Positions 6,701 through 32,935 of a DNA stretch of 32,935 nt are shown here, in pieces. The DNA is from Chthoniobacterales bacterium (GTDB taxonomy: Bacteria > Verrucomicrobiota > Verrucomicrobiia > Chthoniobacterales > UBA10450), in NCBI GenBank assembly GCA_049300145.1, contig JBAQJG010000594.1, forward strand, positions 1 through 32,935, in the 5' to 3' direction. The position numbers were made by a program, and so were the translations under genes. The notes under the pieces were generated by a model. That model had not been told where the DNA came from. It made no database searches and saw nothing but the letters and a program-made list of their open reading frames with translations. Each line of letters starts with the position of its first letter. Position 1 is the first letter of the stretch.

Positions 6701-7153
6701 CCGGAAAGCGTGACCACGCTGGCGCGACAACGTTTTCGTTGGGCATATGGTACGTTGCAATGTCTTTGGAAGCATCGCGACATGGTCTTCAACTGGAAAT
6801 ATCGCGCTCTCGGCTGGTTTAGTCTGCCGAGCGTTTGGTTTTTCCAAATCGTCCTCGTGGCCGTCACGCCGATGGTGGATTTGTTTTTGTTTGCCTCGCT
6901 TCCATTTGGCGCATGGCGCGCGGTCATGCCATTCGTGATCACCTTCCTGTCGATGGATGTCATTCTGGCCACGCTCGCCTGCATTTTGGAGCGCGAGCCG
7001 ATCGTGCGCGCCTGGCGGATTTTGCCGATGCGCCTGATCTATCGCCCGATGCTCAGCTATTGTATCTGGAAAGCGATCCTGCGGGCTGTGAAAGGCGCCT
7101 GGGTGAGCTGGGGCAAGCTCGAGCGGACCGCCAGCGTACCGGTCCGAGTGTGA
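3797..7153 (+). CDS. Tri-domain exopolysaccharide enzyme: N-terminal TM anchor + GH18-like domain + NodB polysaccharide deacetylase + processive GT2 synthase (PgaC/IcaA/NodC-like) with C-terminal TM helices
   Basis: 1118-aa ORF. Residues about 117-420 have a GH18-like LDWE motif (AAGVVLDWEQ). Residues about 497-690 are a NodB domain (ITFDDGPDP..EIGNHTYYHP..LFRPPY..ILLHD). Residues about 763-1000 are GT2 with VVDDGSRD, FIDADT, AEDTDLT and QRFRW motifs, followed by several hydrophobic helices. Confidence 0.9.
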   Translation: MQDIPPDTVTPFVFSDPGGKRWPRLRLILLLSGVLVFLGTVLFVQTLFVAPQMRVPFSLRQLKGQLKALQKQNPAGQVASTSLLWQKFGAARQAAKKLGGPTPSPPARPRKKSPINEVRLAFYTNGDPYSYASLEQHAAQITHVCPEWMAVVNGLGDLQIDADARLPKFAASRGIALMPLLTNLVGDTWQPEAIENLAHGPADRQDRFIHNVLAALRNAKAAGVVLDWEQIDPAYKKDITALIDKFADTLHDDGRELWLCVQPGQELDYIDFQNLADNVDRFVALLFDETSDIDPPGPLGSRSWFEGWLHVLLEDSDTKQWIITLGSYGYDWTIGGKKAELISFPEAMSRANSAGVEAAEVTAPGYNPYFYFEDGDKEHAVWFLDVVTFLNELREVRDQKAGGFALYRLGTEDTAIWDALNVRPDFKIDNQTRQLLEVLKSTDTIADVGDGEIVTVDESRSDGMRNLAVDHDGYLTAKYTKFPEFPTLYHQGAGGEHQVAITFDDGPDPRWTPKILDILKAANVKAAFFLVGVNAEQHPGLVRRIVDEGHEIGNHTYYHPNLALCWPEHVRLELNATQLLIESITGRATTLFRPPYAADTSPSQLSELIPLQIAQDLDYLVVLENIDPQDWAKPGADIILQRVKQQRRDGSIILLHDAGGDRSQTVEALPRILDWLHARGDSVVPLSTLLGTTRDAVMPPLHENGQSLTRLVSSTGFRIYHGIEEFLWAFMIVATALVVVRTLVVIWLAYCFRRQPKADFAKPISVVMAAYNEGKVIASTLHALLNTDYKGDIEVIVVDDGSRDATASEVESITQVDRRVRLLQQENRGKARALQRGLTAVRHGIVVFIDADTQCQRDTLPRLLEPFADERIGAVSGHAKVGNLRTFIARCQALEYTCGFNLDRRAYDRWNCITVVPGAISAIRKDAIDQVGGLSLQTLAEDTDLTLSLHKHRQRIVYVPGAIGWTEAPESVTTLARQRFRWAYGTLQCLWKHRDMVFNWKYRALGWFSLPSVWFFQIVLVAVTPMVDLFLFASLPFGAWRAVMPFVITFLSMDVILATLACILEREPIVRAWRILPMRLIYRPMLSYCIWKAILRAVKGAWVSWGKLERTASVPVRV
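4145..5056 (+). other. GH18-like (chitinase-fold) domain of the EPS enzyme
   Basis: RLAFYTNGD..GVVLDWEQI..LGSYGYDW..GGFALYRLGTED. The full DxxDxDxE catalytic motif is only partly retained (LDWE). Confidence 0.6.
5285..5866 (+). other. NodB-homology polysaccharide deacetylase (CE4) domain
   Basis: TFDDGP (motif 1), HTYYH (motif 2), RPPY (motif 3) and LLHD (motif 5). Confidence 0.85.
6083..6796 (+). other. Processive family-2 glycosyltransferase domain
   Basis: The D, DxD, ED and QxxRW signature set is complete: VVDDGS, DADT, AEDTD, QRFRW. Confidence 0.88.
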
Positions 7154-7179: not shown

Positions 7180-7270
7180 GAATGACGAAGGAATGACGAA
7201 ATCGGAATGATGAAGAGCGTAGTCCGGTTGCCCCTTCGTCATTTCAGCGTTTTGCATTCATTCGTCATTT
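7180..7270. promoter_or_regulatory. Array of GAATGACGAA direct repeats (x3) and inverted TTCGTCATT copies (x2) spanning the GH26-like gene start codon
   Basis: Direct copies at 7180-7189, 7191-7200 and 7205-7214 (the last is gaatgatgaa). Inverted copies at 7235-7243 and 7261-7269. aatgacgaagg (7181-7191) can pair with ccttcgtcatt (7233-7243), enclosing ATG 7207. Confidence 0.45.
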
Positions 7271-8361
7271 TGTTTACCATCGCTGGCGGATTAGCCTCGT
7301 GCAAAAAGCCTGGCCTAACGAATGCGCGCATCGATCCAAACGGTCCGGTCGAGATCGTGATTCCGGAACACGGCGCATACACGGGCGCGTTCATGGATTT
7401 CGGTGACGAGGAGGACGACGTGACGCTGGAGATGATCGAGGATTTCGAATCGATGGTCGGCAAACATCAAGCCATCATCGCGTCGTCGAGCTACTGGGGC
7501 GAACAAACTTTTCCTACCGCGAATTTGAATGTCGAGTGGCGGCACGGCTCGTTGCCGCTTGTCTTTTGGTCGCCGTGGGACAAACCGTACGAACAGAATC
7601 GCGGTCCCGATAGATTCAGTTTATTCGAGATCATCAACGGCAAGTGGGACGCGTACATCGACAAGTGGGCTGATGCCGCGCGCGAATTCGGTCATCCCAT
7701 GATTGTCGCTTTCGGTGTGGAGATGAACGGCGACTGGTTTCCGTGGTCAGGCGTTTATTACGGCGGCGACAAATGGGCTGAGGACGAGGAAACTTGGGAA
7801 GGCCCGGAGCATTTCAAGGCGGCTTACCGCCACGTGGTTGACCGCGTCCGCGCCCGCGGCGCATCGAACATCAAGTGGATGTTTCACTCGAATAATTATT
7901 CCTATCCCATGGATACCTGGAATTTTGCGCCGTCTTACTATCCGGGGGCCGAGTATGTCGATTGGTTAGGCCTGAGTGTTTACGGCCAGCAATTCAAAGA
8001 GGAACCAAACCCGGGTATTCGTTCGCTCGTGGATTGGCCGTATCAGGAAATGTGCGGACTCGATCCGAACAAACCGATCATGATCGCCGAATGGGCAACC
8101 GGCGACTTTCCGCACGCGATCGACGAACATGGCGGGATCGGCAAAGCTGAGTGGATCAGACAGGGGTTGGAACTTTTTCGGACGCGGTATCCGCGCGTCA
8201 AAGCTGCAGTTTACTGGCACGAGCGCTGGCAGAACCCCGATCAATCCTATAGCAACTTGCGAGTCAATTCTTCCGTCGAATCGCTGCAAGCCTACCGTGC
8301 GGGCATCGCGAACTCCGATTGGTTAGGCAATCTGATCCTGCGTACTATTCCGAAAAAGTAG
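7207..8361 (+). CDS. GH26-like glycoside hydrolase, predicted lipoprotein
   Basis: 384 aa. The signal peptide ends in the lipobox GGLASC. FGVEMNGDWFPWSG resembles the GH26 acid/base region (HEMNGxWFWWG), and IMIAEWAT fits the nucleophile Glu region. Confidence 0.72.
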   Translation: MMKSVVRLPLRHFSVLHSFVILFTIAGGLASCKKPGLTNARIDPNGPVEIVIPEHGAYTGAFMDFGDEEDDVTLEMIEDFESMVGKHQAIIASSSYWGEQTFPTANLNVEWRHGSLPLVFWSPWDKPYEQNRGPDRFSLFEIINGKWDAYIDKWADAAREFGHPMIVAFGVEMNGDWFPWSGVYYGGDKWAEDEETWEGPEHFKAAYRHVVDRVRARGASNIKWMFHSNNYSYPMDTWNFAPSYYPGAEYVDWLGLSVYGQQFKEEPNPGIRSLVDWPYQEMCGLDPNKPIMIAEWATGDFPHAIDEHGGIGKAEWIRQGLELFRTRYPRVKAAVYWHERWQNPDQSYSNLRVNSSVESLQAYRAGIANSDWLGNLILRTIPKK

Positions 8362-15152: not shown

Positions 15153-18100
15153 CTATTTATAGTATGGCCGCAACGACGGGCGTATCTTTCCGACTCTAAG
15201 AGCCGTTTCAAGCTCCGAATCAGAAACGCAATCGTCGAGAAGTTTACGAACGTTTTCTGCCTCTAGCGCCGCAATCGGCAGCCCTGCCCGGAACAGCAGG
15301 CGGTTTCTAGTAAAGGCAACAATCCTTGGCCCTGGGGTGAGAATGCCTTGTAAATTCAGTGGATCTGCAGCGCTCAGTGCAAGCAGTTCGTATTTTGGCG
15401 ACGTTTTGCGCACGGATCGCAACAAGCCGATGGCTTCCGGCAAGGCAAATTGTTCGCCATTTACGCCACCAACAAAATAACCGCCGCGAATCTCGCCGCG
15501 CGCTTCCCACCGGCGATAAATTCGTCCCAATTCGTACCACGTAACAGCGAAACTCTCGCGTTCCAGCAAGCGGCGAAACACAACCCCGTAACGGCGGAGC
15601 AATAACCGGGCAAATTTCTCCACCGCAGCGTCGCGTAAAGACACTCCTGCCCCGTTTGAGGACGGTTGTAAGCCGGATTTGCCTGACGTTCTCAGCAAAG
15701 ACCAGCGGCCGGCGAATTCGATATTCGCGATATTGGTTTTGCGGCGGCGTTTGCCCTGATTGCGTCCAAATGTCGGCCGCTTATTCGATGGAACCAAAAG
15801 GGCGCGCAACCCATCGAAACTATCGGATGTGACAAAACCGAGCGCTGCCAGTTGAGACAAGGCTTCTTCGACTTGCGACGGAAGCAAACCACTTCGCTGC
15901 GCCAGCTCGCCGAAGAAGAGCGCGCCCCCGTCTGCCAATGCGTCCAGCACAGTTTTACTACTGGCCGAGAGTTCCATTTCTGCATTTTTCTCAGTCAATA
16001 GTAGCCAGTCTTGAAGATTTTCTCGCTGATAGAGCGAGATAGGACTTGTTCGCAACGGCGTGGCTGTATGCGCGCAAGGATTTTGCGGCGAGCTTAAACG
16101 GCCCCACCCGACGCGACCAGAAAAGCAAAGGCGATCGAGCCATTCCGGATCGTACTCCGCAACGCGCGCAGGTAGAACAGCCGACTCCCATGCCGCCAGC
16201 GGAAGTTCGCATCCATCAAGTTGCTCCAGAACTGACTGCAAGCCTTCCGGACCTTCAACTCGATGTTCGGCGTCAGCGCGCTGCCACGAAAAAAGAAAAC
16301 GATAAAAATCCTGTGGCGAGACCGGCTGAATCTCGGCGCGCAGCCGATCAATTGTGCGCCGATGAATCCTGGCGAGCAACCGGCGATCGCACCATTCTTG
16401 TTCTTTCGCCGCCGGATTGAATTTCCCGCGGAGAAGGAATCCTTCCGCTTCAAGGGCAAGCAATGCCGCATCGATCTCAGAACTGGTAAGGCTTAGATTT
16501 TCTGTGAGTTCACCGGCAGACACCGGTCCGCAGGCTTCCATTCGCCCACGAATCAATTCCCGAATCGCGTCCGGGCGTTCCCATTTTTGGTGACGAACAG
16601 ACTCAGGCGCGACGAGGTCAGGCTCGCGCACCGCATCTAGATAAATCGTCTGCAACATCGGCAAACGCTCGACGGCAACCCAAAACGCTTTATCTGCGAA
16701 GGTCAGTCTCATCGCTCGACCAGCGCCCACAAGATCCCTGACCAGTTGCTCGGCGGCCGCGCCGTTTTCTTCGGTGTGAATCGTAACTGTTCGCCGTGTC
16801 TCTTCTTCAGTCATGACGCCGAGCAACATCAATGCGTCATGCAATTCATCTGCATTCGTCGCACCCGGCCACGCTTCCCACTGCACCTTCTCAATGGCGG
16901 CCGAATCCAAAATTCCAAGTCCGTCGCTGCTCCCGCCGGCGCGGGATTCCGAAGCTCGACGAGTATAAACAGCTTGAGTGCGCCTCTCCTCGAGCGGCGC
17001 GTTGTCCAGGAATGCGTAAGGCCGGGCGTTCAGAATTTCCGCCGCCAGCGGTGATGGCTCCGGCAGATCCCGAGCGATGCAGCGAATCTCGCCCTGCTCA
17101 ATCTTACGCAAAACTTCTTCCAAACCGTCGATGTCCATCGCTTCGGTCAAACAATCGTCAATCGTCTGCTTGACCAGCGGATGATCTGGAATCTCGCGGT
17201 CGCCAACAATGTGTTCGAGACAAGCGAGCTGGTCCGGAAACACTGCGGCGAGAAGGTTTTCAGATTCCATTCGCTGCAACGGCGCTGCGATTTTTGCACC
17301 TCCACGAAAACGCGGCACGGCCAGCGAGCGCGTTGCGTTCCAGCGCCAACGGATGGTGAACATCGGCGCATCGAGCAACGCTTGGACGAGAAGATCGCGA
17401 ACTGTTTTGGAATTCAGGTAGCGAAAGACTTCCTCGAGCGGGAACGAATGTTGTGTACCAAGCGAAATTACAATCGAATCATCGGTGGCTGCTGCTTGCA
17501 GTTCGAAATTGAAAGATCGGCAAAAACGCTTCCGCAAGGCCAGACCCCAGGCTCGGTTAATTCGATTCCCGAATGGCGAATGGAGAACCAGTTGCATTCC
17601 GCCTGATTCATCAAAGAAACGCTCTATGATAAGCGTGTCCTGTGAAGGAAGTGCGCCCAAAGCGCGAAAACTATCTGCAAAGTAATCGGCAACTTGCTGA
17701 GCGGCTTCGACGGACAATTCAATTTCCCGAGCTAACCATTCAGAGACATTTTTGCCTTCAGCCAGAAGATTTTCGATCTCAACGCGCAAACTAGATAGGG
17801 ATTGTGACAACTCGGATGTGCGCGCCGGCGCTTCACCCAGCCAAAACGGAATCCCTGGTGGCTGGCCTTTCGCGTCTTCGACTCGAACGACGCCCGAATT
17901 CACCCGAAGAATTCGCCATGAAGAATTGCCAAGTTGGAAGATGTCGCCCGCCAGACTTTCCACGGCGAAATCCTCGTTAACTGTTCCAACAAAAGTCTCC
18001 GATGGTTCGAGGATCACTCGATAATCGGCATTGCCGGGAATTGCGCCGCCGGAAGTTAGCGCAACCAACCGAGCGCCACGTCGTGCGTGCAACCGACGGT

Positions 18101-19535
18101 TCACCGCGTCGTGGTGAATCAACGCCGCGCGCCGGCCACGCTTCGTGCTAAAACCTTCGGACAGCATCCTCACAACGCTGTCAAATTCTTCGCGCCTGAG
18201 GTTTCGATACGCCCAGGCCGATCGCGCCAGCTCAAACAAACTACTTTCATCCCAATCTTCAGTTGAACTTGCGGCGACGATTTGTTGGGCGAGCACGTCC
18301 AGCGGTTTCTCCGGGATTAGCAGACGATCGAGTTCGCCGCTTCGGACGCAACGCAGGAGCGCGACACACTCGACAAGTTCGTCGCGGCTTAACGGGAAAA
18401 TCCGGCCTTTCGGAAGACCGCCACGCTGATGCTCGGCGCGACCGACGCGTTGCAGCAGGGTAGCAATCGAGCGCGTAGTGCCGAGCTGGCAAACGAGATC
18501 GATCGAACCGATGTCGATTCCCAATTCCAGCGACGCCGTGGCCACGAGTGCTTTCAGTTCCCCGCGTTTCAACCGGTCTTCCGCTTCGAGACGTAGTTTA
18601 GCCGAAAGACTTCCGTGATGAGAAGTCACCGCATCCGCGCCAAGTAGCTCGCTCAGATGATGCGTCACGCGTTCCGCCATCCGGCGTGTATTCACGAATA
18701 CCAAAGTCGTGCGGTGTGCCTGAATGAGCTCCGCCAGACGATGATAAACTTCTTCCCAAACTTCATTCGCCATCACTGCCTCGAGCGGCGATTTCGGGAG
18801 CTCAATCGCCAGGTCCAAGTCCCGTCGATGACCGATATCGATGATCGCGCAATCAGGATTGCCATCACTCTCCACGGCACGAGTACCCACGAGAAATCGC
18901 GCGACTTCTTCGATCGGCTTTTGCGTTGCGGACAATCCGATTCGCTGCAACGGATTCTTCGTCAACGCCGCCAACCGCTCCATACTCAGGGCGAGATGCG
19001 CTCCGCGGCGGTCGTCCACGACCGCATGAATTTCGTCAACGATCAGAGTCCGCACCGTGCTCAGCATTTGCCGGCCAGACTCCGAAGTGAGAAGCAGATA
19101 CAAAGATTCGGGAGTAGTCACCAGAATGTGGGGCGGTTTTTTGATCAGAGCCTGACGCTGAGCGGCGCTGGTGTCGCCGGTGCGAACCTCGGCGCGCACG
19201 TCTATCTCGCGGCCTTCGGTTTCGTGTAGCAAAGCGCGAATTCCGGCAAGCGGCTCCTGAAGATTTTTGCGAATGTCGTTACTCAGCGCTTTGAGTGGTG
19301 AGACATAAACAACCCGCGTCGCATCCGGTAATTCGGTTTTCGCGCCTTCGCGGAAAAGCGCATCCAGCGAGGAAAGAAATGCCGCCAACGTTTTGCCAGA
19401 ACCTGTCGGAGCAGAAATCAAAACATGGCGGCCTGAGTGAATTTCCGGCCAGCCGCGAGCTTGCGGCTCTGTCGGCGACCCGAACGTTTGCTCGAACCAC
19501 GGCGCGACGGCAGGATTAAATCGAAACGACTGCAT
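15153..19535 (-). CDS. lhr: Lhr-family ATP-dependent DNA helicase (full-length, with C-terminal extension)
   Basis: About 1460 aa. Walker A is APTGSGKT, motif II is DEIH, and the helicase C region is HHGSLS..ATASLELGID..QRVGRAEH. The long Lhr-type WH/DEAD-associated region and C-terminal domain (GGYFVGGVNGEQFALPEA) are present. ATG at 19535 is preferred to GTG at 19562. Confidence 0.92.
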   Translation of the reverse strand: MQSFRFNPAVAPWFEQTFGSPTEPQARGWPEIHSGRHVLISAPTGSGKTLAAFLSSLDALFREGAKTELPDATRVVYVSPLKALSNDIRKNLQEPLAGIRALLHETEGREIDVRAEVRTGDTSAAQRQALIKKPPHILVTTPESLYLLLTSESGRQMLSTVRTLIVDEIHAVVDDRRGAHLALSMERLAALTKNPLQRIGLSATQKPIEEVARFLVGTRAVESDGNPDCAIIDIGHRRDLDLAIELPKSPLEAVMANEVWEEVYHRLAELIQAHRTTLVFVNTRRMAERVTHHLSELLGADAVTSHHGSLSAKLRLEAEDRLKRGELKALVATASLELGIDIGSIDLVCQLGTTRSIATLLQRVGRAEHQRGGLPKGRIFPLSRDELVECVALLRCVRSGELDRLLIPEKPLDVLAQQIVAASSTEDWDESSLFELARSAWAYRNLRREEFDSVVRMLSEGFSTKRGRRAALIHHDAVNRRLHARRGARLVALTSGGAIPGNADYRVILEPSETFVGTVNEDFAVESLAGDIFQLGNSSWRILRVNSGVVRVEDAKGQPPGIPFWLGEAPARTSELSQSLSSLRVEIENLLAEGKNVSEWLAREIELSVEAAQQVADYFADSFRALGALPSQDTLIIERFFDESGGMQLVLHSPFGNRINRAWGLALRKRFCRSFNFELQAAATDDSIVISLGTQHSFPLEEVFRYLNSKTVRDLLVQALLDAPMFTIRWRWNATRSLAVPRFRGGAKIAAPLQRMESENLLAAVFPDQLACLEHIVGDREIPDHPLVKQTIDDCLTEAMDIDGLEEVLRKIEQGEIRCIARDLPEPSPLAAEILNARPYAFLDNAPLEERRTQAVYTRRASESRAGGSSDGLGILDSAAIEKVQWEAWPGATNADELHDALMLLGVMTEEETRRTVTIHTEENGAAAEQLVRDLVGAGRAMRLTFADKAFWVAVERLPMLQTIYLDAVREPDLVAPESVRHQKWERPDAIRELIRGRMEACGPVSAGELTENLSLTSSEIDAALLALEAEGFLLRGKFNPAAKEQEWCDRRLLARIHRRTIDRLRAEIQPVSPQDFYRFLFSWQRADAEHRVEGPEGLQSVLEQLDGCELPLAAWESAVLPARVAEYDPEWLDRLCFSGRVGWGRLSSPQNPCAHTATPLRTSPISLYQRENLQDWLLLTEKNAEMELSASSKTVLDALADGGALFFGELAQRSGLLPSQVEEALSQLAALGFVTSDSFDGLRALLVPSNKRPTFGRNQGKRRRKTNIANIEFAGRWSLLRTSGKSGLQPSSNGAGVSLRDAAVEKFARLLLRRYGVVFRRLLERESFAVTWYELGRIYRRWEARGEIRGGYFVGGVNGEQFALPEAIGLLRSVRKTSPKYELLALSAADPLNLQGILTPGPRIVAFTRNRLLFRAGLPIAALEAENVRKLLDDCVSDSELETALRVGKIRPSLRPYYK

Positions 19536-19569
19536 AGATAGGAGATTCGCGAAGACGGGCACCGCTAAT

Positions 19570-24167: not shown

Positions 24168-24232
24168 TGCCGGCGGAGGGGCTCGAACCCACACGATCTT
24201 GCGATCACTGGATTTTGAGTCCAATGCTCTTT
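24168..24232 (-). tRNA. Truncated tRNA-Leu(CAA): 3' acceptor strand, T-arm, long variable arm and anticodon stem-loop only; 5' acceptor and D-arm absent (att-site remnant)
   Basis: The minus strand reads ..ttgga-CTCAAAA-tccag-t-gatc-GCAA-gatc-gt-gtggg-TTCGAGC-ccctc-cgccggc-A. The anticodon CAA is at 24217-24215 and the variable arm has a GNRA loop. The required 5' strand GCCGGCG and a GG-containing D-loop are not present in 24233-24260. Confidence 0.7.
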
Positions 24233-24262: not shown

Positions 24263-24291
24263 TTGACAAATGGACTTCAATCTCATATTCT
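24263..24291 (+). promoter_or_regulatory. Candidate sigma-70-type promoter for the integrase
   Basis: TTGACA at 24263-24268, a 17-nt spacer, then TATTCT at 24286-24291. An AGGTG Shine-Dalgarno sequence lies about 9 nt before ATG 24312. A tandem GTTGAC repeat (gttgacggatggttgac) overlaps the -35. Confidence 0.3.
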
Positions 24292-24311
24292 TTTCGTACA
24301 GGTGTAAAGCT

Positions 24312-25496
24312 ATGCGTAGAACCCGATTGAGAATTATTAAGGCCAGGGTGCGGCGAGATAGTTCTTGGGATCGTTATTATTGTGTGGTCGTCCCGAAACT
24401 TGGCGGCGGCAGGACGCGCCGCTTTTTCAAATTCACGCCGGAAGGCAAACGAGAAGCCGAAACGTTTCTGCAAATTTCCAAGGTCCGGCAGGAGAATGAG
24501 GGAACAGCCGCGCTTTCAATCCCCGAGACATTGCGAATCGAGGCAGTGAAATGCGAACGCTTGCTGAAGCCTGTCAATGCGACGTTGACGGATGCGGTAC
24601 AGTTTTTCCTAAAGCACGCCAAACCCGTCGGCGGAACAAAGAGTTTGGCGGACGCCATAAGAGAGATTCTTGATTCAAAGCGCAGAGCCGGGAAGCGGGA
24701 AAGTTATATTCGGATTCTCGGATGGGTGCTCAATGCGTTTGAGCGCGAGTTTCAAGGCCGGAACGTCAACGAGATCACCCGGCAGGACGTGGAATCCTGG
24801 GTTGATCGAATAGAAAATCTAACAACTCGGAAGAATCGCATCCGCGATTTGTCCATCCTGTTCGATTTTTGCCGCCGACGCGGCTACTGCGGCTCGAACC
24901 CTTTAGAAAACATCGAACGGCCGGTCGTCAGTGGCAAGAGACCCGAAATCTTTACCGTAAATGAAGCCGCCGCTTTGCTGACCACGGCGGAGATTTATCC
25001 AGAGTTCGAGCTCGTTCCGGCGATTGCCATTGGCCTCTTTGCCGGACTGCGAATGTCAGAGATAAAACAACTCGACTGGTGCAACGTGGATTTTGAACAC
25101 CGAGTCATCGATGTTGACGAATCCATTGCGAAGACACGCCAACAGCGAAACGTCGACATGAGTGATTCGCTTGCTGCGTGGCTAACGCCTCACACGCGAA
25201 CGGAAGGACAGGTTATTCCCGCCGGTTTTCGTAAGAAGATGGAGCAGTTGCGCAAGCTGGCCGGGATCACGAAATGGCCCAACAACGGGCTGCGACATTC
25301 ATTCGGCAGCTATCACGTTGCACATTTTCAGAATCCGAATTTGACGGCACTTCAAATGGGCCACGCCACGACTGATATGTTGTTCAAGCACTATAGAAAT
25401 TACCGGATCAGGGAAAAGGACGCCGAAGCGTATTGGAAGCTTGCTCCGGCGGTAACCGGTAAAAATGTGGTGGCTTTTGCAGTTGCAAGTGTGTGA
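24312..25496 (+). CDS. int: Tyrosine-type site-specific integrase
   Basis: The catalytic set is recognisable: R in GLRMSE, HxxR in LRHSFGSY, H in MGHATTDM and Y in FKHYRNY. An N-terminal SAM-like core-binding region is present. An in-frame ATG at 24270 is an alternative start. Confidence 0.92.
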   Translation: MRRTRLRIIKARVRRDSSWDRYYCVVVPKLGGGRTRRFFKFTPEGKREAETFLQISKVRQENEGTAALSIPETLRIEAVKCERLLKPVNATLTDAVQFFLKHAKPVGGTKSLADAIREILDSKRRAGKRESYIRILGWVLNAFEREFQGRNVNEITRQDVESWVDRIENLTTRKNRIRDLSILFDFCRRRGYCGSNPLENIERPVVSGKRPEIFTVNEAAALLTTAEIYPEFELVPAIAIGLFAGLRMSEIKQLDWCNVDFEHRVIDVDESIAKTRQQRNVDMSDSLAAWLTPHTRTEGQVIPAGFRKKMEQLRKLAGITKWPNNGLRHSFGSYHVAHFQNPNLTALQMGHATTDMLFKHYRNYRIREKDAEAYWKLAPAVTGKNVVAFAVASV

Positions 25497-25746
25497 CTCT
25501 CATTGGCGGCGCAACCGCGGGACACACATCGCCCGCGATGCTGTGACGGCATTATCACAGGGCTGTGACCCAGAAACAGGCGGCCGCCTTTTGGAAGATT
25601 GAGCCGCCGAAGATCGATCGGAAAACGATTCGATTTGTTGCCGCTTAGGTTAGTTCCCAGCCGGACGGTGAACACGACGGCGCGCACCTGGATGAGTAGC
25701 CGATTACTTTGTTTTTTGCATGGACAAAGCCGTCTAGACGCATACT

Positions 25747-25758
25747 GTTCAATTGAAC
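25747..25758. promoter_or_regulatory. Perfect 12-bp palindrome GTTCAATTGAAC upstream of the zinc-ribbon ORF
   Basis: Perfect dyad 75 nt upstream of ATG 25833. CTGTGAC half-sites recur at 25540-25570. Confidence 0.3.
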
Positions 25759-25832
25759 ATGAAGGCGAGATTCCGCTCATTTTTGCGGAGGCGTGTGCGG
25801 CGCCAGCGTCCGCGACAACTCGAACTCAATCT

Positions 25833-26048
25833 ATGGCCGAACCGTCAAACACTCTCCGGCAAATTTTGGAAAAAATCCGTGACGACACGCAACAGGCGCT
25901 GAAACTTCTCGGCGATGCCGCGGAAGTGCGGTCGCTCGGATGGAAGTGCAGCGCATGCGGCCACGTGAAGCATTTTACTCGGCCTGTTCTGACTGAAGTC
26001 GCTCGGCCATGCCCGAAGTGCAGAGGCGAGGCGTTTCAAGCGTCGTAA
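25833..26048 (+). CDS. Small zinc-ribbon protein (71 aa), candidate island regulator
   Basis: MAEPSNTLRQILEKIRDD...WKCSACGHVKHF..ARPCPKCRGEAFQAS carries a CxxC...CxxC motif. The longer track ORF from 25599 has an Arg-rich, non-protein-like N-terminus. Confidence 0.5.
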   Translation: MAEPSNTLRQILEKIRDDTQQALKLLGDAAEVRSLGWKCSACGHVKHFTRPVLTEVARPCPKCRGEAFQAS

Positions 26049-26478: not shown

Positions 26479-27420
26479 ATGAAAATTCGCACACGCGTCG
26501 CGTGGCTCGCCACCGCGGCGGTATTTTTATGCAACGTCACGGTGGCAGTCGCCAAAGATATTCCGGGCAGCAAGGATCATCCGCTGCTCAAACGATTCGA
26601 GGGCTCAGAGATCGTGCGCTACAAGGCGGCGCCTTTTGATACACTCGATTTTTACAAGAAAGAGAAAACCAAAGTCACACTTGAGGGACAAATGGTCCGC
26701 ATCGTTTTCAAGGTTCCGGCGGGCAAATCATCCTCTCTTGAGGTTTATCGCAACTACGAAAATGAGCTGAAAGAAAAGGGGTGGGACTTGGTCAATTCGG
26801 GCCCATCAGAGATTGGCGCGTACGACCTTTTCACTCAGCAGGGACTGGCGCTCAACGTTTTCGCCATTGTGCTGCGAAAACCGTTTTACATTTATGCCAT
26901 TAGGCACGATCCCGGCGGCGATGTTCATTTGGCTGTAACGATAGCCGAGGTCAGCCAGGACAATGGCGCCTTTAACGCAGAGGAAGTGATTGCTTCCGTT
27001 GATAGCATTCAGGTCAAAACCGTGACCAACAAGATGGTCGATGGCACTGCGAGCGACATGGCCAAAGAGATCGCCTCCACTGGGCATGTGAATCTATATG
27101 GGATTTACTTCGACTTCGATAAAGCGGACATCAAACCGGAGAGCAAACCGACATTGGACGAAGTTGGCAAGTTATTGAACGGCGATCCGAGTTTAAAACT
27201 TCAAGTAATCGGCCACACCGACAACAAAGGCACGGCCGATTACAACAACAACTTGTCGATGCGCCGCGCGCAATCGGTAGTGAAAGAACTCACCACCACC
27301 TACAACGTCGTCGCCAATAGATTGGAGCCCTCCGGCGCGGGTTTTACTAAGCCCGTCGCCTCGAACGACACCGAGGAAGGACGGGCTAAGAATCGCAGAG
27401 TCGAATTAGTGAAGATGTAA
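26479..27420 (+). CDS. OmpA-family peptidoglycan-binding protein with DUF4892-like N-terminal domain
   Basis: Signal peptide ..VTVAVA|KD. The N-terminal domain is IPGSKDHPLLKRFEGSEIV..FD. The C-terminal OmpA_C domain is FDFDKADIKPES..VIGHTDNKGTADYNNNLSMRRAQSV..GRAKNRRVELV. Confidence 0.85.
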   Translation: MKIRTRVAWLATAAVFLCNVTVAVAKDIPGSKDHPLLKRFEGSEIVRYKAAPFDTLDFYKKEKTKVTLEGQMVRIVFKVPAGKSSSLEVYRNYENELKEKGWDLVNSGPSEIGAYDLFTQQGLALNVFAIVLRKPFYIYAIRHDPGGDVHLAVTIAEVSQDNGAFNAEEVIASVDSIQVKTVTNKMVDGTASDMAKEIASTGHVNLYGIYFDFDKADIKPESKPTLDEVGKLLNGDPSLKLQVIGHTDNKGTADYNNNLSMRRAQSVVKELTTTYNVVANRLEPSGAGFTKPVASNDTEEGRAKNRRVELVKM

Positions 27421-27457
27421 CCAGGAACAAGATCGGGACCGCCGGTCTAAGCGAGCT

Positions 27458-29494
27458 ATGAAAGGCAGAATCTGGACAAAGATCCTCTGGCCGATTGCTG
27501 TTGCACTTGTGTTTGTTACCAGCCCTGACTACTCCGTTGCCGAAAGCAAAGCCGAGGCAAAGAAAGCGTGCGAAAAGGCAAAGCAGGAAGTAGACAAAGC
27601 GACGGAAGCAGCCGATAAAGCGCAAAAAGACGCCGATAACTTTATGTCGTCCCCGGCGGATCGGGATGCCGATAAGGCGGATAAGCAGGCGGCCACAGAT
27701 GAGCAAGCTGCCAGGGATGCCCAAGACAAGGCGGACAAGTCTCAGGTCGACGTAAACAACAATGTGCCAGGATCGGCCGAGGAGGCACGAAAGGACCAAC
27801 AGGCGGCGGACAAAGCTCGCGAAAAGGCGCAGGACTCGGAGAACAAAGCAGACGCCGCCGATAAAAAAGCAGACAAAGGCGAAAACAAAGACGATCCACA
27901 CAAGATCAATCGGCAGAAACAAAAGGAGAAGCGCAAAAAGGTCCAGGAGGCGTGGGACAAGTGTCGCAAGTTCAAGCTCGCCGGGTTGATTAGTTTAGGG
28001 CCGCCATCCAGCACCATCGGCGAGTATGTTGTTTCGGCTCAGTTGAGCGTTACAACTCCCGGCACAGGCGAAACCATCGGCCACATTGCCGATCTGGTAG
28101 TTCAGAATCTCACAGATCAACCGATCGCATGCGTGATTCCGCCAATGCTTCTGGAATCGAGCAGCGGCAAGAATCAGACTTACGCCTGTCCGAAACGGCA
28201 GGACGTGGCCCTCAGGCCGCACGAATTGAAAACCGTTCCGATGGATGGCGTTTGCCTGAATCGCAACAAGCCGCCCGTGGCTCCTGGTGTGACGGGCGAT
28301 CTGCAATTGAACGATGGCGGACCAAATGCCGGCCACAGCCATGTTAACCGTAAAGATGCGGACAAGCTGCTTCGACTTTGCGAAGCAAAGTACCAGGCGG
28401 CCGACAAGTTGGAAAAGGACGGTGCTCTCAAAGATTTGCCCTACAAGGATAAGCAGAAGCGCAAAGACATCTGCGTGCAGTGGACCACTTGGAGCGATCC
28501 GCAAATATGCGGGCTCACTGGCGCGCCGCCCGCCACCAAAGAGGACTTAAAGAAAGTTGTTTATAAGCAGGTGGAAGAGCAGGGACCGTTGACCCCGGAC
28601 AAAAAGAAGAAAATTGATCAAGGGATCGATACGATTTTTGAGAAAATTGAGCTGACCAGCAGCAAGGCAAAGGATCTCGAGAAACCGGAAGGCTCGATGA
28701 TTGCCGATCAGGGAGAAACCCCGCCATCGTCGACAGTAGCCAATGTTTCGGACGAAACGCCATCTCCGGCACCGGAGGCCGAGCCTAAAACCGAGACGGT
28801 GTACAACCCTGACGGCTCGACCACGACGACCACTACCGTTTCTACCGGAAACAGCGCCACAACCACTACTGAGACGCAGTATCTCGATGGAAGCAGCAGC
28901 TCGAAAACTGACGTGAAATACAAGAGCGGTGCGACTCTTACGCAGGTTAAAAATCGTGATGGCTCCACAGAGCAAACGTCAACTTCGACGGACGAGGATG
29001 GCACGCAGCGGACAACCGTTACCACCATAGCGAAGGACGGCACGCATACGACCACCACAACCGAGGTGGACAAGGACGGTAACAAAAAAGTCTCCACCAC
29101 ATCGGTGAATAGCGACGGCGTTTGGAACACGACGAGTGAGAAGACAAACATCGACGGCACGAAGGAGAAAACAAGCATCACCGATGACGGTTCGAGCACG
29201 ACGGTGTTCACCGAAAAGGACGGCAACACCGCTACCACGACCACGGACAACGAGGGACACGCCAAGACGAAGACGCCGAAGGGAAGCTACAGCGTAGATC
29301 CCCAGCCTGATGGATCGATGCTAGTCCACTGGAATATCCCTACCGGCACCGGTGGTTCTTCGTCTTATCCGCGCGGAACGACTATTACGCCTAACATCGC
29401 GCCTAACGCAGATCCTAACAACTCGCATCCATTCATCGCCACACCGCCACCGCCACCGCCGCTTCCGAGCGCGGGAGAAGGTAAGAAACCATGA
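27458..29494 (+). CDS. Island protein A1: secreted, K/A/D/E-rich coiled-coil N-terminus + conserved six-Cys core + Thr-rich DG-repeat C-terminus with poly-Pro tail
   Basis: 678 aa with a signal peptide (MKGRIWTKILWPIAVALVFVTS). The core (residues about 195-440) is paralogous to A2. The C-terminus has at least 10 DG(S/T/N) repeats in Thr-rich sequence and ends PPPPPPLPSAGEGKKP. Lies 37 nt after the OmpA-like gene. Confidence 0.8.
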   Translation: MKGRIWTKILWPIAVALVFVTSPDYSVAESKAEAKKACEKAKQEVDKATEAADKAQKDADNFMSSPADRDADKADKQAATDEQAARDAQDKADKSQVDVNNNVPGSAEEARKDQQAADKAREKAQDSENKADAADKKADKGENKDDPHKINRQKQKEKRKKVQEAWDKCRKFKLAGLISLGPPSSTIGEYVVSAQLSVTTPGTGETIGHIADLVVQNLTDQPIACVIPPMLLESSSGKNQTYACPKRQDVALRPHELKTVPMDGVCLNRNKPPVAPGVTGDLQLNDGGPNAGHSHVNRKDADKLLRLCEAKYQAADKLEKDGALKDLPYKDKQKRKDICVQWTTWSDPQICGLTGAPPATKEDLKKVVYKQVEEQGPLTPDKKKKIDQGIDTIFEKIELTSSKAKDLEKPEGSMIADQGETPPSSTVANVSDETPSPAPEAEPKTETVYNPDGSTTTTTTVSTGNSATTTTETQYLDGSSSSKTDVKYKSGATLTQVKNRDGSTEQTSTSTDEDGTQRTTVTTIAKDGTHTTTTTEVDKDGNKKVSTTSVNSDGVWNTTSEKTNIDGTKEKTSITDDGSSTTVFTEKDGNTATTTTDNEGHAKTKTPKGSYSVDPQPDGSMLVHWNIPTGTGGSSSYPRGTTITPNIAPNADPNNSHPFIATPPPPPPLPSAGEGKKP

Positions 29495-29613
29495 CCAGCC
29501 GACCGGCAACTAGTAACTATTCAAATCCTTCCGTTGCAGCCGACGCAAAATTCCAGGCGGTGACGCCCGCGGGCCACTCGATTGTTTCTTCGCCAACCTC
29601 CTTCGCGAGGTGA
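29491..29613 (+). CDS. 40-codon ORF, likely a 5'-truncated remnant of a B-type gene
   Basis: ATGA overlap with the A1 stop and GTGA overlap with the C1 start. Its ..AADAKFQAVTPAGHSIVSSPTSFAR* aligns with the B2 C-terminus TADKRLQIVVAGQPIVLPLTALAK*. At DNA level gcgggcca..tcg.tt..gcc..c.aac is shared. Confidence 0.35.
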   Translation: MTSRPATSNYSNPSVAADAKFQAVTPAGHSIVSSPTSFAR

Positions 29614-29978
29614 AAACGCCCGCTCTTATTTTATCGACAGGAGTCGTCGCAAGCGCGATCATCCTAACGGGCAACGCCTCGGACAAGAAGGCATCATGTC
29701 CCTGCCATCCCTGTACATGTTCGCCGTTGCTCCTACATATGCCGGGTCACATGCTTGTTGGCTGGGAACCGACGCCTGCCGATCACGCCCCGCCCGGATC
29801 GCTCTATTATTTAGAGACGACCATGATCGGTTCGAAAAGTTTTGATGAAGCATTGCGATATGCTTGGAGCACGGTGCAAAGAAACTTGCAGACGGGAGAA
29901 TTCCAAAAGGGCAACGCGTTCCTAATCAAGGTGGCCGATTTGCGCAAAGCTGGCGTTACCCCGCAACCCTATCAGTAG
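29610..29978 (+). CDS. Island protein C1: N-terminal hydrophobic anchor + SCPCHPCTCSP cysteine motif + about 80-aa C-terminal domain
   Basis: 122 aa with a GTG start. Residues 1-39 align with the partial ORF at 32682, with Cys30 in the identical register. HMPGHM follows the motif. Confidence 0.6.
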   Translation: MKTPALILSTGVVASAIILTGNASDKKASCPCHPCTCSPLLLHMPGHMLVGWEPTPADHAPPGSLYYLETTMIGSKSFDEALRYAWSTVQRNLQTGEFQKGNAFLIKVADLRKAGVTPQPYQ

Positions 29979-30016
29979 TGCCGCGTCACCGCCGGCTTAA
30001 CAGCAGGGCCGGACTA

Positions 30017-30034
30017 TTCCTTAAGTTCCTTAAG
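30017..30034. repeat. Tandem 9-mer TTCCTTAAG x2 in a T-rich inter-cassette spacer
   Basis: attccttaagttccttaagttctttcttttcg follows a weak hairpin (ccggc..gccgg, 29992-30012). Possible terminator region for cassette 1. Confidence 0.4.
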
Positions 30035-30081
30035 TTCTTTCTTTTCGTTCGCGGTTCAATTCAGTAAATAGAGCACAGACT

Positions 30082-30112
30082 TCGCGAGCGTCCGGCTCGC
30101 CCACGACAAATT
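30082..30112 (+). promoter_or_regulatory. Island upstream motif copy 2
   Basis: tcgcgagcgtccggctcgcccacgacaaatt starts 51 nt before the A2 ATG and contains the stem gcgagc/gctcgc. Confidence 0.45.
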
Positions 30113-30132
30113 AGAAATCAAAGGTCAACCTT

Positions 30133-31995
30133 ATGAAAACCATCGTGCCCAGAATCATTTTCATCGGCGCAATTGTCGGCGCAGTTCTGATCACAGCGCT
30201 TCCTCAAATCCGCGCGGATGACTTCGATGACGCCGAGAAGGCGGTAAAGGATTGCGAGCAGGCGACAAAGGACGCCCAGGATAACGTGCCTGTGAAAAGC
30301 GTCCGGGATGCCGAGAATAAATTGGATCAGGCGGAACAAAAGCTGGACGACGTAAATTCTAAGACTAATCCGACGGCGACCGATCTCGAAAAAAAGGACG
30401 CCCAAACCGAGCGTGACGACGCTCAAAAGGCGGCCGATGACGCGCAAGCAGCCGGAAACCCGGATCTCAAGGGTAAGTATGATAAGTATCGCGATGCACT
30501 AAAGAGGCGTCGCGAGGCGTGTAAGAAGCTGAAAAAGCTCATTCCCGACCTGCAAGCGCAGGTCAGCAAGCAGGCGCACCATCTTTCCGACAACATTGTG
30601 AACGCACACAAGAACGTGCTTAGAAAGGCTAGTGATTGCGTAAAAAAATGCGGAGAGCCACCAGCGGTGGCGATGGTTATGCCGGGAGTCACCCCCGGTG
30701 GTCCAACACTTGCGTCGCTTGCTTCGACCGGTCGGATAGCGGTTAGCTTCACCGGCACCGGCGAAACCATTGGGCCAGTAGCGATGCTGACGCTTCAAAA
30801 CCTAACCGATGAGCCGATCAACTGCGCGATTCCGCCGATGGTTCTCGAATCGGGCAGCCGCAAAAACCAAGACTACGTATGCCCGAAAGGTCAGAGCGTG
30901 GCAATTGGGCCACACGGGACGGCGACCGTTCCGATGGATGGAGTTTGTGTCAACCGCAGTAAACCGCCGGTCGGTAAAGGCGTGGGCGGAGATTTGGTGA
31001 TGAACGACGGTAATCCAAATGTCCCCGCGAATGCGAATTCCCACGTTTCGCCAAGAGGCGCCAACAAGCTGCTAGGTCTCTGCACTGCGAAGTATGACGC
31101 GGTCGATAAATTGCAGAAAGATGGCACTCTCAAGGATTTGCCGTACAAAGACAAGCAAAAACAAAAGGATATTTGCGTGCAGTGGAGCACTTGGTCAGAT
31201 CCGCGCATTTGCGAAATTACCGGTGCGCAGCCCGCGACCAAAGACGACTTAAAAAAAGTTGTTTACAAGCAAGTCGAAGAGCAGGGACCGTTGACCCCGG
31301 ACAAAAAGAAGAAGATCGATCAGGGAATCGACACCATCTTCGACAAGATCGAGTTAACTAGCGAAAAGGCGAAGGACCTTGAGAAGCCGGAGAGCGAAAC
31401 GATCGCCAACGAAAGCGAAACACCTGCCGCTGGGTCGGCAGTAAACATTTCCAATCAGACGCCAACTCCGGCACCGCAGACGCAGGAAAAGCCAAAAAAG
31501 AAAAAACCAAAACTATCGGGCGACCGGCCCAAGCCGGTGCGGGATTGGTGGGACAAACTATACGCCATGGAAGTGGCCGATGTGAAGAAGCAGCAAAAGG
31601 AAGAGGCCTATACCCGCGAGAAAAACAATTATTTCGATAAAAGCAAACATCATCAAGAGCTGGTAGATAAAGTGAGCAAAATACAGGCAATACTTAGCAA
31701 CCCATTAAGTAAGAACACTGCCGTGGAGAATGACAAATTGATCAAGGAGAGGAATGAGTTACAGAAGGAGCTCGCGAAACTTGAAGCTGACCTAGAGAAG
31801 GATTTTCGGCAGACGGACGAAGGAAAGAAAGCGCTTCAAGAAATGGGTGATGCTCAGCAGGCTGCCAATGATGCCCACAAAGCCGAAGCAGAAGCGGGTA
31901 AGTACATAGACAAGGAGGCGATCGGACACGCGGTCGTGGAGCAACTGCAGAAGAATGCTGCTGACCAAGCGAAGGCGGACCAGGCTGTACCTTGA
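30133..31995 (+). CDS. Island protein A2: secreted, coiled-coil N-terminus + conserved six-Cys core + Lys-rich linker and coiled-coil C-terminus
   Basis: 620 aa with signal peptide MKTIVPRIIFIGAIVGAVLITALPQIRA. The core (residues about 203-448) is paralogous to A1, for example GTGETIGPVAMLTLQNLTDEPINCAIPPMVLES against GTGETIGHIADLVVQNLTDQPIACVIPPMLLES. Confidence 0.8.
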   Translation: MKTIVPRIIFIGAIVGAVLITALPQIRADDFDDAEKAVKDCEQATKDAQDNVPVKSVRDAENKLDQAEQKLDDVNSKTNPTATDLEKKDAQTERDDAQKAADDAQAAGNPDLKGKYDKYRDALKRRREACKKLKKLIPDLQAQVSKQAHHLSDNIVNAHKNVLRKASDCVKKCGEPPAVAMVMPGVTPGGPTLASLASTGRIAVSFTGTGETIGPVAMLTLQNLTDEPINCAIPPMVLESGSRKNQDYVCPKGQSVAIGPHGTATVPMDGVCVNRSKPPVGKGVGGDLVMNDGNPNVPANANSHVSPRGANKLLGLCTAKYDAVDKLQKDGTLKDLPYKDKQKQKDICVQWSTWSDPRICEITGAQPATKDDLKKVVYKQVEEQGPLTPDKKKKIDQGIDTIFDKIELTSEKAKDLEKPESETIANESETPAAGSAVNISNQTPTPAPQTQEKPKKKKPKLSGDRPKPVRDWWDKLYAMEVADVKKQQKEEAYTREKNNYFDKSKHHQELVDKVSKIQAILSNPLSKNTAVENDKLIKERNELQKELAKLEADLEKDFRQTDEGKKALQEMGDAQQAANDAHKAEAEAGKYIDKEAIGHAVVEQLQKNAADQAKADQAVP

Positions 31996-32151
31996 TTTGG
32001 AAGAGCCGACCAAGCCAGCAAAGAAGAACTGTCGTCATGAATGTGAAGTCGGCGATGAGTTCGTCTTCTGATCTGCCAACTCACTTTCTTTGACTTGACA
32101 TTCACGCGGCATCGGCCCAGAATCGCGGCTGATTTAATCTCATAAGTAAGT

Positions 32152-32685
32152 ATGCCGATGAAGAGATCCAATGGCATCGTTGTGCTGTTGATGGTGGGTT
32201 TGGTTGTCGCTCTTTCAGTGGAAGGCGCTCCTCGGGGCAGTGGAAGTTTGACGCCGGTCCGTAATACAACGAAGCGCGGCGCTTACACTATCGAGACAAT
32301 TGGGGACACGTTGCATCAAGCATCGCCACAAAATACACGTCTGATCATTCGCGTTTCTGGTGCTGACAAGAAGCTGATCAAGCCAGATTCAATCGCGCTG
32401 ATCGACAAAAGCGGTGCGGCCATCAAGCCAGTCCTTCGGGAAGACCGCAAGGTCGGTCACGAGGAAAATACCGGCTTACCTATTTCAATCGGCGGATCTA
32501 CCGACAGTTCCGGAGCGGCCGTCAACGGGGTTGGCATTAATTTGAACAAGATCTTGGGACCGCACGGCGATTACGCTTACACCAAGGTCGATTGGCCCAA
32601 GGAAGCCTTCACGGCGGACAAAAGACTTCAGATTGTTGTTGCGGGCCAGCCAATCGTTTTGCCGCTAACTGCGTTGGCGAAATGA
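32152..32685 (+). CDS. Island protein B2: small secreted protein (177 aa), no family recognised
   Basis: Signal peptide MPMKRSNGIVVLLMVGLVVALSVEGA. Composition looks beta-rich. The stop overlaps the start of the next ORF (ATGA). Confidence 0.65.
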   Translation: MPMKRSNGIVVLLMVGLVVALSVEGAPRGSGSLTPVRNTTKRGAYTIETIGDTLHQASPQNTRLIIRVSGADKKLIKPDSIALIDKSGAAIKPVLREDRKVGHEENTGLPISIGGSTDSSGAAVNGVGINLNKILGPHGDYAYTKVDWPKEAFTADKRLQIVVAGQPIVLPLTALAK

Positions 32686-32935
32686 ACGGAGGCGTCTTCG
32701 TCGCTTCGATCACAGTCGGCGCGAGCGTCGTCATTTTGGCGGGAGGCGCGTTCGCTAGAACATCGTCTTGCCCATGTAATCCGTGTACCTGTTCGCCTTG
32801 CACATGTGGCGTCGGCAAGAGCGGGCATAGTAGCCCTACCAAGACCGAAACTGGCAAAACCGAGCCCAAACATCATGAGGTAAGCAAGGAGAGGGACCAT
32901 GAAAGGGGCCACGGGCATGCCGGAGTCGGAGTCAA
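32682..32935 (+). CDS. Island protein C2 (partial, runs off the window end): hydrophobic anchor + SCPCNPCTCSPCTC motif + His/Lys/Glu-rich region
   Basis: This ORF is not in the supplied track because it has no stop. It reads ATG 32682: MNGGVFVASITVGASVVILAGGAFARTSSCPCNPCTCSPCTCGVGKSGHSSPTKTETGKTEPKHHEVSKERDHERGHGHAGVGV.., and is homologous to the C1 N-terminus. Confidence 0.6.
   Translation, partial: MNGGVFVASITVGASVVILAGGAFARTSSCPCNPCTCSPCTCGVGKSGHSSPTKTETGKTEPKHHEVSKERDHERGHGHAGVGV

Follow-up and report, generated by a model that had tools for sequence, protein, structure and literature searches.

The secretins (PF00263), which form outer-membrane channels in type II and type III secretion systems (T2SS, T3SS), type IV pili, and filamentous phage, carry N0–N3 domains, and the C-terminus of known secretins is located on the periplasmic face. 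Polymorphic toxins, such as CdiA, Rhs, and the effectors linked to DUF4157/eCIS_core, combine a conserved N-terminal part with a boundary motif and many C-termini, and they occur as paralogue arrays with recombination. Here, we describe a gene cluster that resembles each of these in part and encodes three families of exported proteins, designated A, B, and C. It was found at the right end of a 32,935-nucleotide stretch of DNA from a Chthoniobacterales bacterium (assembly GCA_049300145.1, contig JBAQJG010000594.1, positions 1 to 32,935), referred to below, at its full length, as the window. One A paralogue in each canonical locus of the cluster has a signal peptide and a secretin domain, but these fusions carry the secretin domain at the N-terminus, immediately behind the signal peptide, with the A core and junction motifs coming after it. 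With the toxins, the cluster shares all of the general features just named.

Chthoniobacterales, in particular Candidatus Udaeobacter, are among the most abundant soil bacteria and are almost uncultured; to our knowledge, their cell envelope is essentially undescribed. A literature search on Udaeobacter plus secretin found nothing relevant. From the comparisons reported here, we tentatively favor the interpretation that the cluster encodes a lineage-specific, Sec-exported, secretin- and peptidoglycan-associated assembly of modular proteins at the cell envelope or surface, with B as the constant partner.

Results

No match to A, B, or C was obtained in Pfam, NCBIfam, PADLOC, or PHROGs, and searches against PDB sequences, with single proteins and with profiles, gave nothing above coiled-coil noise. 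An earlier reading of the window from its letters alone (the original prediction) had recognized no named family for the three proteins; this agrees with the family libraries, the PDB sequences, and the Foldseek comparisons described below, which gave no significant match and generic folds only. The distribution of the families was analyzed in a first set of 18 loci, in 15 genome loci, in 80 soil-metagenome loci anchored on B, and in 107 related loci amounting to 716 kb. A, B, and C co-occurred in more than 100 related loci from Chthoniobacterales (Verrucomicrobiota) or soil metagenomes, and all 15 genome loci belonged to metagenome-assembled genomes of Verrucomicrobiota (Chthoniobacterales, Ca. 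Udaeobacter, and Chthoniobacter). In nearly all of the first 18 loci, A was accompanied by B and/or C wherever the contig was long enough, and an A core was present in each of the 12 metagenome loci with at least 1.5 kb upstream and at least 2.5 kb downstream of B. A C-type open reading frame (ORF) directly followed B in 38 of the 49 B genes that had at least 600 nt downstream. The start of C overlapped the stop of B by 4 nt in 21 of these 38 pairs, and the translational coupling of B and C is conserved. The three-gene association proposed from the window was thus recovered in both genomes and metagenomes.

The order of the genes varied (B-C-A-A-A-A, A-B-C, or A-B-C-B-C-A), with tandem arrays of up to four A genes. 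The usual order of the surroundings, seen in L001/L015, L019, L020, and L025, was extracytoplasmic function (ECF) sigma factor, glutaredoxin, class A penicillin-binding protein (PBP), the cluster, and YkuD, followed at some distance by DUF2851, DUF4126, and serS. When 124 neighboring ORFs of 12 additional loci were scanned with Pfam, the commonest families were Transpeptidase/Transglycosylase (5–7), N_methyl (6), DUF2851 (5), and seryl-tRNA synthetase (5), and BamD, LptE, and glutaredoxin occurred three times each. The usual site of the cluster is thus chromosomal and among cell-envelope genes, with a class A PBP gene on one side and a YkuD gene on the other. A role of A, B, and C as regulators of peptidoglycan synthases, considered from the PBP1A/YkuD synteny, was set aside, as this synteny was confined to related genomes and absent from the window.

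In canonical loci, the first A paralogue after B-C consisted of a signal peptide, a secretin domain, and an A core. Three such secretin::A fusions (P0016, P0040, and P0084) exceeded the Pfam gathering score, and in L001, L008, and L019 the secretin domain of the leading A gene scored 30–39 bits, against a cut-off of 27.5. A1 and A2, the two A proteins of the window, gave no match to the secretin family in the Pfam scan and have coiled coils instead; the secretin link therefore applies to the cluster and not to the window's own genes. A secretion ATPase, platform, or pilin operon (GspE, GspF, or PilB-type) was not found among the neighboring genes examined.

A1 (27458–29494, plus strand; 678 aa) and A2 (30133–31995, plus strand; 620 aa) were identical at 178 of 288 residues (62%; BLAST E 9e-122), with no significant similarity in their N-terminal coiled coils or past the linker; the paralogy proposed from the sequence is therefore real. 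In A1, a signal peptide and a coiled-coil N-terminal region precede the core (about nt 28013–28717), which is followed by the junction helix IELTSSKAK and by a Thr-rich repeat with a Pro-rich tail. An AlphaFold2 model of A2, calculated from a 47-sequence alignment (mean pLDDT 87.3), showed a signal peptide, a long helical coiled coil (residues 30–172), a core (nt 30697–31407) in which an eight-strand beta-sandwich (200–291) is packed on a helical subdomain (307–416), a disordered linker (423–455), and a helical-bundle tail (467–617). The full model had no Foldseek match in PDB or BFVD at E ≤ 0.001, and the matches obtained, comprising helical bundles, STAT-like cores, FnIII-like sandwiches, and phage tape-measure proteins, were judged to be non-specific.

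The tail of A1 has orthologues in L023 and L069 (57% identity over 206 aa), and A2 is 94% identical to L024 at the DNA level. A1 and A2 are old paralogue lineages, each of them with orthologues in other genomes, rather than products of a recent duplication. The idea of a duplicated three-gene cassette had to be given up on this ground and because cassette 1 is decayed, as described below. The conserved core with swapped termini, by contrast, was found to be a stronger trait than the original prediction had claimed: about 10 distinct C-terminal endings of A were read in the hit list, and the N-termini were also exchanged among several types of coiled coil, secretin domains, and Thr-rich modules. 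Many A proteins with a coiled-coil tail ended in VPA[KVQ]W or a similar sequence with a terminal Trp, possibly a signal for recognition of the C-terminus; this Trp is missing in A2, whose last residues are ADQAVP.

A search with the A-core profile gave 444 clusters at 50% identity, and at least 207 relatives of A were counted at 90% clustering, any named ones being hypothetical proteins. Six cysteines had been described as positionally conserved between A1 and A2. All six pairs exist, and the A2 positions were exact, but the A1 residues are 225, 244, 266, 308, 339, and 351, three of which had been placed off by one. As a trait of the family the set did not stand, since only C231, C250, C272, and C317 (A2 numbering) were retained in all of 24 aligned cores of the Chthoniobacterales type, and only C272 was strictly invariant in the 47-sequence alignment. 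Among 209 near-full core instances, which include the remote relatives, Gln246, Gly270, and Cys272 were 100% invariant and Trp354 was conserved at 99%; no polar residue other than Gln246 and Cys272 showed complete invariance. Residues Q246, C272, and W354 of A2 are encoded at about nt 30868–30870, 30946–30948, and 31192–31194, respectively, of the window. The QW..W helix was 95–99% conserved.

The A core was also found outside Chthoniobacterales, and the weakest matches to its profile carried two or three copies of the core. The remote proteins are probably from Bacteroidota; a neighboring gene in L021 has a Por_Secre_tail domain. In P0359, tandem A cores are followed by an eCIS_core/DUF4157 domain (E 3.8e-8). 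A neighboring protein of 1531 aa in L022 starts with a core and continues with Big_9 and six HYR_4C domains, the layout of a stalked surface adhesin. In L021 (10001–12586) and L022 (5351–13273), the A-core genes were arranged in tandem with variable C-termini.

A and C were found to share more than their place in the cluster. The junction motif [VI][EK]LT[GSTN]xx[AG]K was common to both families and often doubled; in A, the final helix of the core terminates in the motif FEKVELTTAKAKDLEKP, and the two variants stand one after the other in some A proteins. Furthermore, the tail of the L024 C protein was homologous to that of A2 (39% identity over 169 aa, E 1e-23). A and C are thus different heads on one common junction-and-tail system that draws on the same pool of coiled-coil tails. 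L024 and the window were 94% identical over 30501–32637, and the identity then dropped to 67% in C; this sharp drop, where the 3′ end of B meets the start of C, shows that recombination has broken and rejoined the DNA at the B/C junction. In L027 (8001–11770), a homologue of the window's OmpA-like protein (71% identical) is followed by four tandem paralogues of 216–231 aa, which carry the C-family elements PEKPK, GVGV, a His-rich stretch, and CKCHPCTCSPCHCGG in mirror order at their C-termini, confirming that the modules are freely shuffled. Their Thr-rich N-terminal module was also N-terminal in the A protein of L025 and resembles the tail of A1. The heads and tails of A and C are thus exchanged by recombination. 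At the canonical site in L020 (10515–15006), the C, secretin::A, and A genes were apparently broken into short ORFs, and the cluster seems to be decaying in that genome.

The C proteins of other loci have full lengths of 145–409 aa. Their N-terminal part consists of a signal peptide (AFA|KT), an optional Cys cluster, poly-Gly, a Lys/His-rich stretch, and the motif GVGVNVDLGGIGQRxxEPDPF, and their C-terminal part of the sequence TQEK, the junction F..V[EK]LTG..[AG]K, a Pro/Thr linker, and a coiled-coil tail. The head of C is thus a Cys-, Gly-, and His-rich segment that ends in GVGVNVDLGGIGQR..EPDPF. C2 (32682–32935, plus strand) is cut by the end of the window after 84 codons, and its visible part runs from a signal peptide through SCPCNPCTCSPCTCG and a stretch rich in Lys and His to the GVGV with which the family motif opens. 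C1 (29610–29978, plus strand; 122 aa) was 45–53% identical to C2 over 34–42 aa, covering the signal-like N-terminus and a CPCxPCTC motif. This confirmed that the two share a hydrophobic N-terminus and a Cys motif; the invariance that had been ascribed to the motif did not extend to the family, as the cluster CxCxxCxCxxCxC was present in 22 of the 38 C genes adjoining B and missing in the other 16. The GVGVNVDLGGIGQRxxEPDPF motif was the more widespread feature. The original prediction had also assigned a signal or anchor sequence to every product, and hydrophobic N-termini were indeed present in all of them; those of C, as read from the sequence, look like cleavable signal peptides and not like anchors.

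B is the most conserved member of the cluster. Among 409 relatives of B, the best 120 were about 151–239 aa long and 66–88% identical. B2 (32152–32685, plus strand; 177 aa) was modeled (pLDDT 76.7) as a signal peptide followed by an Ig-like beta-sandwich with a loop of about 30 residues, FREDRKVGHEENTGLP, that is disordered and yet invariant in sequence. The best PDB match by Foldseek was the DUF4426 protein PA0388 (3uc2, E 1.5e-3), and apart from DUF4426 the Foldseek matches were generic Ig folds only.

The arrangement of the genes in the window, read from the ORF listing and the translations, was in accordance with the placement and order given earlier. An ORF of 40 codons (29491–29613, plus strand) lies between A1 and C1, and the three 4-nt overlaps of A1 with this ORF (ATGA), of the ORF with C1 (GTGA), and of B2 with C2 (ATGA) were all found. 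The ORF had been taken for a remnant of a B1 gene. Direct DNA alignment to the B2/C2 junction showed that it does contain the real 3′ end of a B gene, in register with the start of C, but one recognizable only over the last ~46 nt, or ~15 codons (~29568–29613; AGHSIVSSPTSFAR versus AGQPIVLPLTALAK). B1 as a recognizable pseudogene was dropped, as tblastn with B2 against the ORF gave no match. C1 has the head of a C gene (a signal-like N-terminus and SCPCHPCTCSP) joined to an unrelated 83-residue tail; residues 40–122, past the Cys motif, had no relative in the 107 related loci. This lack of relatives suggested that C1 is a chimera, probably truncated or decayed. With the tiny B1 remnant and the C1 tail lacking relatives, cassette 1 is an intact A gene followed by a wrecked B-C pair, and the region holds one intact and one decayed copy of the cluster. 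The spacer of 154 nt between C1 and A2 contains a terminator-like hairpin (29992–30012, plus strand; consensus scan only) starting 14 nt past the stop of C1.

Upstream of A1, and separated from it by 38 nt, is an OmpA-like gene (26479–27420, plus strand) with an OmpA C-domain (PF00691; 8.5e-23, 81 bits against a cut-off of 27.2) and a DUF4892-type N-domain that was matched weakly; its product is predicted to be exported. The protein was 41–60% identical to DUF4892-OmpA proteins annotated in many phyla and is an ordinary member of that widespread family. Close homologues precede an A gene in L025 and the four C-module genes in L027, and genes built from A or C modules were directly downstream in 3 of the 3 loci found via close OmpA homologues. 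The link to an OmpA-type protein noted in the original prediction thus holds in one subclade, to which the window belongs.

The left side of this region contains a tyrosine recombinase, or phage-type integrase, gene (24270–25496, plus strand; Pfam Phage_integrase 9.7e-14; PHROG 1 integrase 1.2e-38), preceded by a 3′ fragment of a tRNA-Leu(CAA)-like gene (24168–24228, minus strand) that lies between a sortilin/BNR gene and the integrase gene. The fragment was read as an anticodon arm, a long variable arm, a T arm, and the 3′ acceptor strand, without the 5′ half. The supporting cmscan match was weak (RF00005, truncated; 16 bits, E 0.61) and did not reach the gathering score, and ARAGORN called no tRNA at this position. 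The fragment is probably an att remnant of an integrative element; a second att copy was not found within the window, whose contig ends at 32935, and may lie further to the right. An ORF of 149 aa (25599–26048, plus strand) downstream of the integrase gene had no relative in the related loci and shows a weak C-terminal CxxC...CxxC zinc-ribbon signature.

The cluster had been described as cargo of an integrase island. By tblastn, however, relatives of the window's integrase were absent from the 80 metagenome loci and the first 18 loci, and Phage_integrase was not among the 25 commonest Pfam families of the 124 neighboring ORFs. As the integrase has no relatives in the loci searched and the usual site is chromosomal, its association with the cluster is particular to this contig, and we regard the integrase and the tRNA fragment as a local rearrangement or insertion and not as a property of the system.

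Elsewhere in the window, a gene at 3797–7153 (plus strand) encodes a 1118-aa fusion of GH18-like, polysaccharide deacetylase, and GT2/chitin-synthase-like domains and is followed by a GH26-like gene (7207–8361); this is a possible locus for the synthesis and modification of an exopolysaccharide (chitin- or poly-N-acetylglucosamine-like). A gene at 15153–19562 (minus strand) encodes a large helicase of the Lhr type (1469 aa) with DEAD, DEAD_assoc, and several Lhr winged-helix domains. In L019, a BNR gene of 1105 aa lies close to the cluster; tblastn at E ≤ 1e-5 gave no match between it and the BNR/sortilin gene of the window, and no synteny is claimed.

Discussion

In the envelope or surface assembly that we favor, the secretin::A-core fusion would form a ring in the outer membrane and display the A cores on its periplasmic side, a placement in keeping with the position of the C-terminus in known secretins. 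The other A paralogues would dock to the ring via the same core, and C, which has no core, via the junction helix and tail. The docked proteins might be held in the zone between the outer membrane and the peptidoglycan, or be passed through the pore to the surface. In the periplasm, B would be the unvarying partner of C and A, or their chaperone. Metal binding or disulfide cross-linking may be the task of the Cys6/His-rich C head, and the OmpA-type protein could tie the assembly to the cell wall.

Several points weigh against such an assembly. The secretin domain of the fusions is short (~200 aa) and without N0–N3, and the forming of a pore is a prediction. The window shows no secretin::A gene, its contig ending inside C2, and B, C, and a secretin partner were all absent at both remote A-core loci examined (L021 and L022). 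The PBP/YkuD synteny, seen only among related genomes, may reflect shared ancestry and not function, and no homologue of known function links A, B, or C to any activity. Lastly, scaffolds confined to the periplasm are not usually so polymorphic in their heads and tails, a trait more in line with proteins of the surface or of conflict. A bolder form of the proposal, namely, a new export or assembly pathway of diderm bacteria in which the outer-membrane pore has the core domain of its clients, A is recruited via that core, A and C via the shared junction helix and tail, B is the dedicated periplasmic partner, and Cys272/Gln246 of the displayed A core form a reactive, possibly covalent binding site, seems rather unlikely to us.

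The polymorphism is the strength of the main rival explanation, which accounts for the variability better than the envelope assembly does. It reads the cluster as a polymorphic locus of secreted effectors or adhesins, in which the A core is the domain for delivery or presentation, the junction is the boundary, and the variable C-termini are the active or binding parts; the tandem A genes would then be an arsenal that recombination has made diverse, while B and C would assist in export. The roughly ten endings that follow the conserved junction, the tandem arrays of up to four A genes together with gene fragments, the visible recombination breakpoints, and a recombinase near the cluster in the window and in L002 are all consistent with this explanation, as are the adhesin- or toxin-like architectures of remote relatives with eCIS_core/DUF4157 (P0359) or HYR_4C/Big_9 domains. 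In contrast, a toxin, enzyme, or known adhesin domain was not found in 31 long members from Chthoniobacterales, whose Pfam matches were limited to Secretin and coiled-coil noise, and the tails are mostly charged coiled coils common to C. The N-termini are as variable as the C-termini. No small immunity-like gene follows each A gene, the A genes instead following one another directly or preceding B-C, and the conservation of B is much higher than would be expected of an immunity protein. The resemblance to effector/partner loci that had been noted from the window therefore received no direct support in Chthoniobacterales, with neither a toxin domain nor a partner for each gene. The cluster also departs from the polymorphic toxins in having no immunity pairs and no CdiB, PAAR, VgrG, or eCIS genes. 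On balance, we consider an effector or adhesin locus unlikely, although it remains the alternative to be taken most seriously.

A periplasmic module for metal or redox stress is less plausible still, and we give it little credence. Here, the Cys6/His-rich C would buffer metal in the manner of a metallothionein, partnered by B, both under the control of the neighboring ECF sigma factor and glutaredoxin. The CxCxxCxCxxCxC head of C, followed by poly-Gly and His-rich stretches, and the ECF sigma factor and glutaredoxin genes upstream in canonical loci are in line with it, but the Cys cluster is absent from 16 of the 38 C genes, the glutaredoxin is cytoplasmic, and the synteny is common to related genomes only. 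Moreover, A, the secretin fusion, and the shared tails are left without explanation.

Slightly less probable again is the view that the A core is a reactive Cys-Gln domain, either a thioester-like module for covalent adhesion or an unrecognized Cys-dependent enzyme, which would make A proteins covalent adhesins of diderm bacteria. The signatures of thioester domains (TEDs), as quoted in PMC4450167, are an invariant Cys in a [YFL]C-hydrophobic-hydrophilic strand motif, an invariant Gln, and a TQxx(hydrophobic)W helix. The core motifs G[VY]C[VLT][ND] (strand), [IV]QxxxW (helix), and NQxY[VA] resemble these signatures (PMC4450167), and the fully conserved Gln246 and Cys272, with Trp354 close behind, fit a reactive pair. 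As in the TED/TIE adhesins of Gram-positive bacteria, the core has a QxxxW helix and is made of beta and helical subdomains, and in L022 it takes an N-terminal place before Ig-like stalks. However, TEDs as described in PMC4450167 have the Gln and Cys motifs in the opposite order, and the four invariant cysteines of the Chthoniobacterales cores may simply form two disulfides. The pLS20 protein p34 and six plasmid homologues were aligned as class II TEDs, and hhalign of this alignment against a 112-sequence A-core profile gave a probability of 0.3% (E 0.19). Neither did Pfam TED match the core, and no TED structure was among the 50 best of 408 Foldseek matches in PDB. Homology to thioester domains was rejected on the hhalign result, and the resemblance at the level of motifs is kept as a lead. 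A proteins further differ from TED/TIE adhesins in having no LPXTG motif, no isopeptide domain, and diderm hosts.

It is very improbable that OmpA-A-B-C travels with the integrase as accessory "moron" genes of an integrative element: the integrase adjoins a tRNA-Leu fragment at the left edge, homology to L025 starts just 57 nt before the OmpA start with differing DNA upstream, and a resolvase adjoins the cluster in L002, but besides the lack of integrase relatives and of a second att copy reported above, base composition shows no clear break, and L025 has the same OmpA-A arrangement at an ordinary chromosomal site after the PBP gene.

As an envelope or surface assembly, the cluster would be a candidate for a new machine in the PVC group (Planctomycetota-Verrucomicrobiota-Chlamydiota). 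It is conserved across the order in a neighborhood of envelope biogenesis, and one of its three unannotated families is fused to a secretin. Its definition would yield three new domain families, of which the A core reaches beyond the phylum, and the residue pair Cys272/Gln246 offers a concrete target for testing. The cluster is also a clear case of module shuffling among exported proteins.

For the remaining described systems, likeness to the cluster was partial in each case. DUF4426 (PA0388, 3uc2) is, like B, a small periplasmic beta-sandwich, but the match was weak (TM 0.36–0.54, 10% identity), and the invariant loop of about 30 residues is extra in B. In the DUF4892-OmpA family, A or C-module genes follow in the subclade described here only. 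Chaperone-usher and two-partner secretion (TPS) systems resemble the cluster in its possible working only, that is, in a conserved Ig-like periplasmic protein (B), a pore-domain protein in the operon, and variable exported proteins (A and C) with a short shared motif. They show no similarity in sequence or fold, as judged from PapD-type chaperones, ushers, TpsB, and TPS domains; B is a single sandwich with no Pfam match and without PapD among the 50 best Foldseek matches, and the motif shared by A and C, which is helical in the A2 model, is unlike a donor strand. Taken together, these comparisons place the three families and their secretin-fused arrangement outside every described system with which they were compared.

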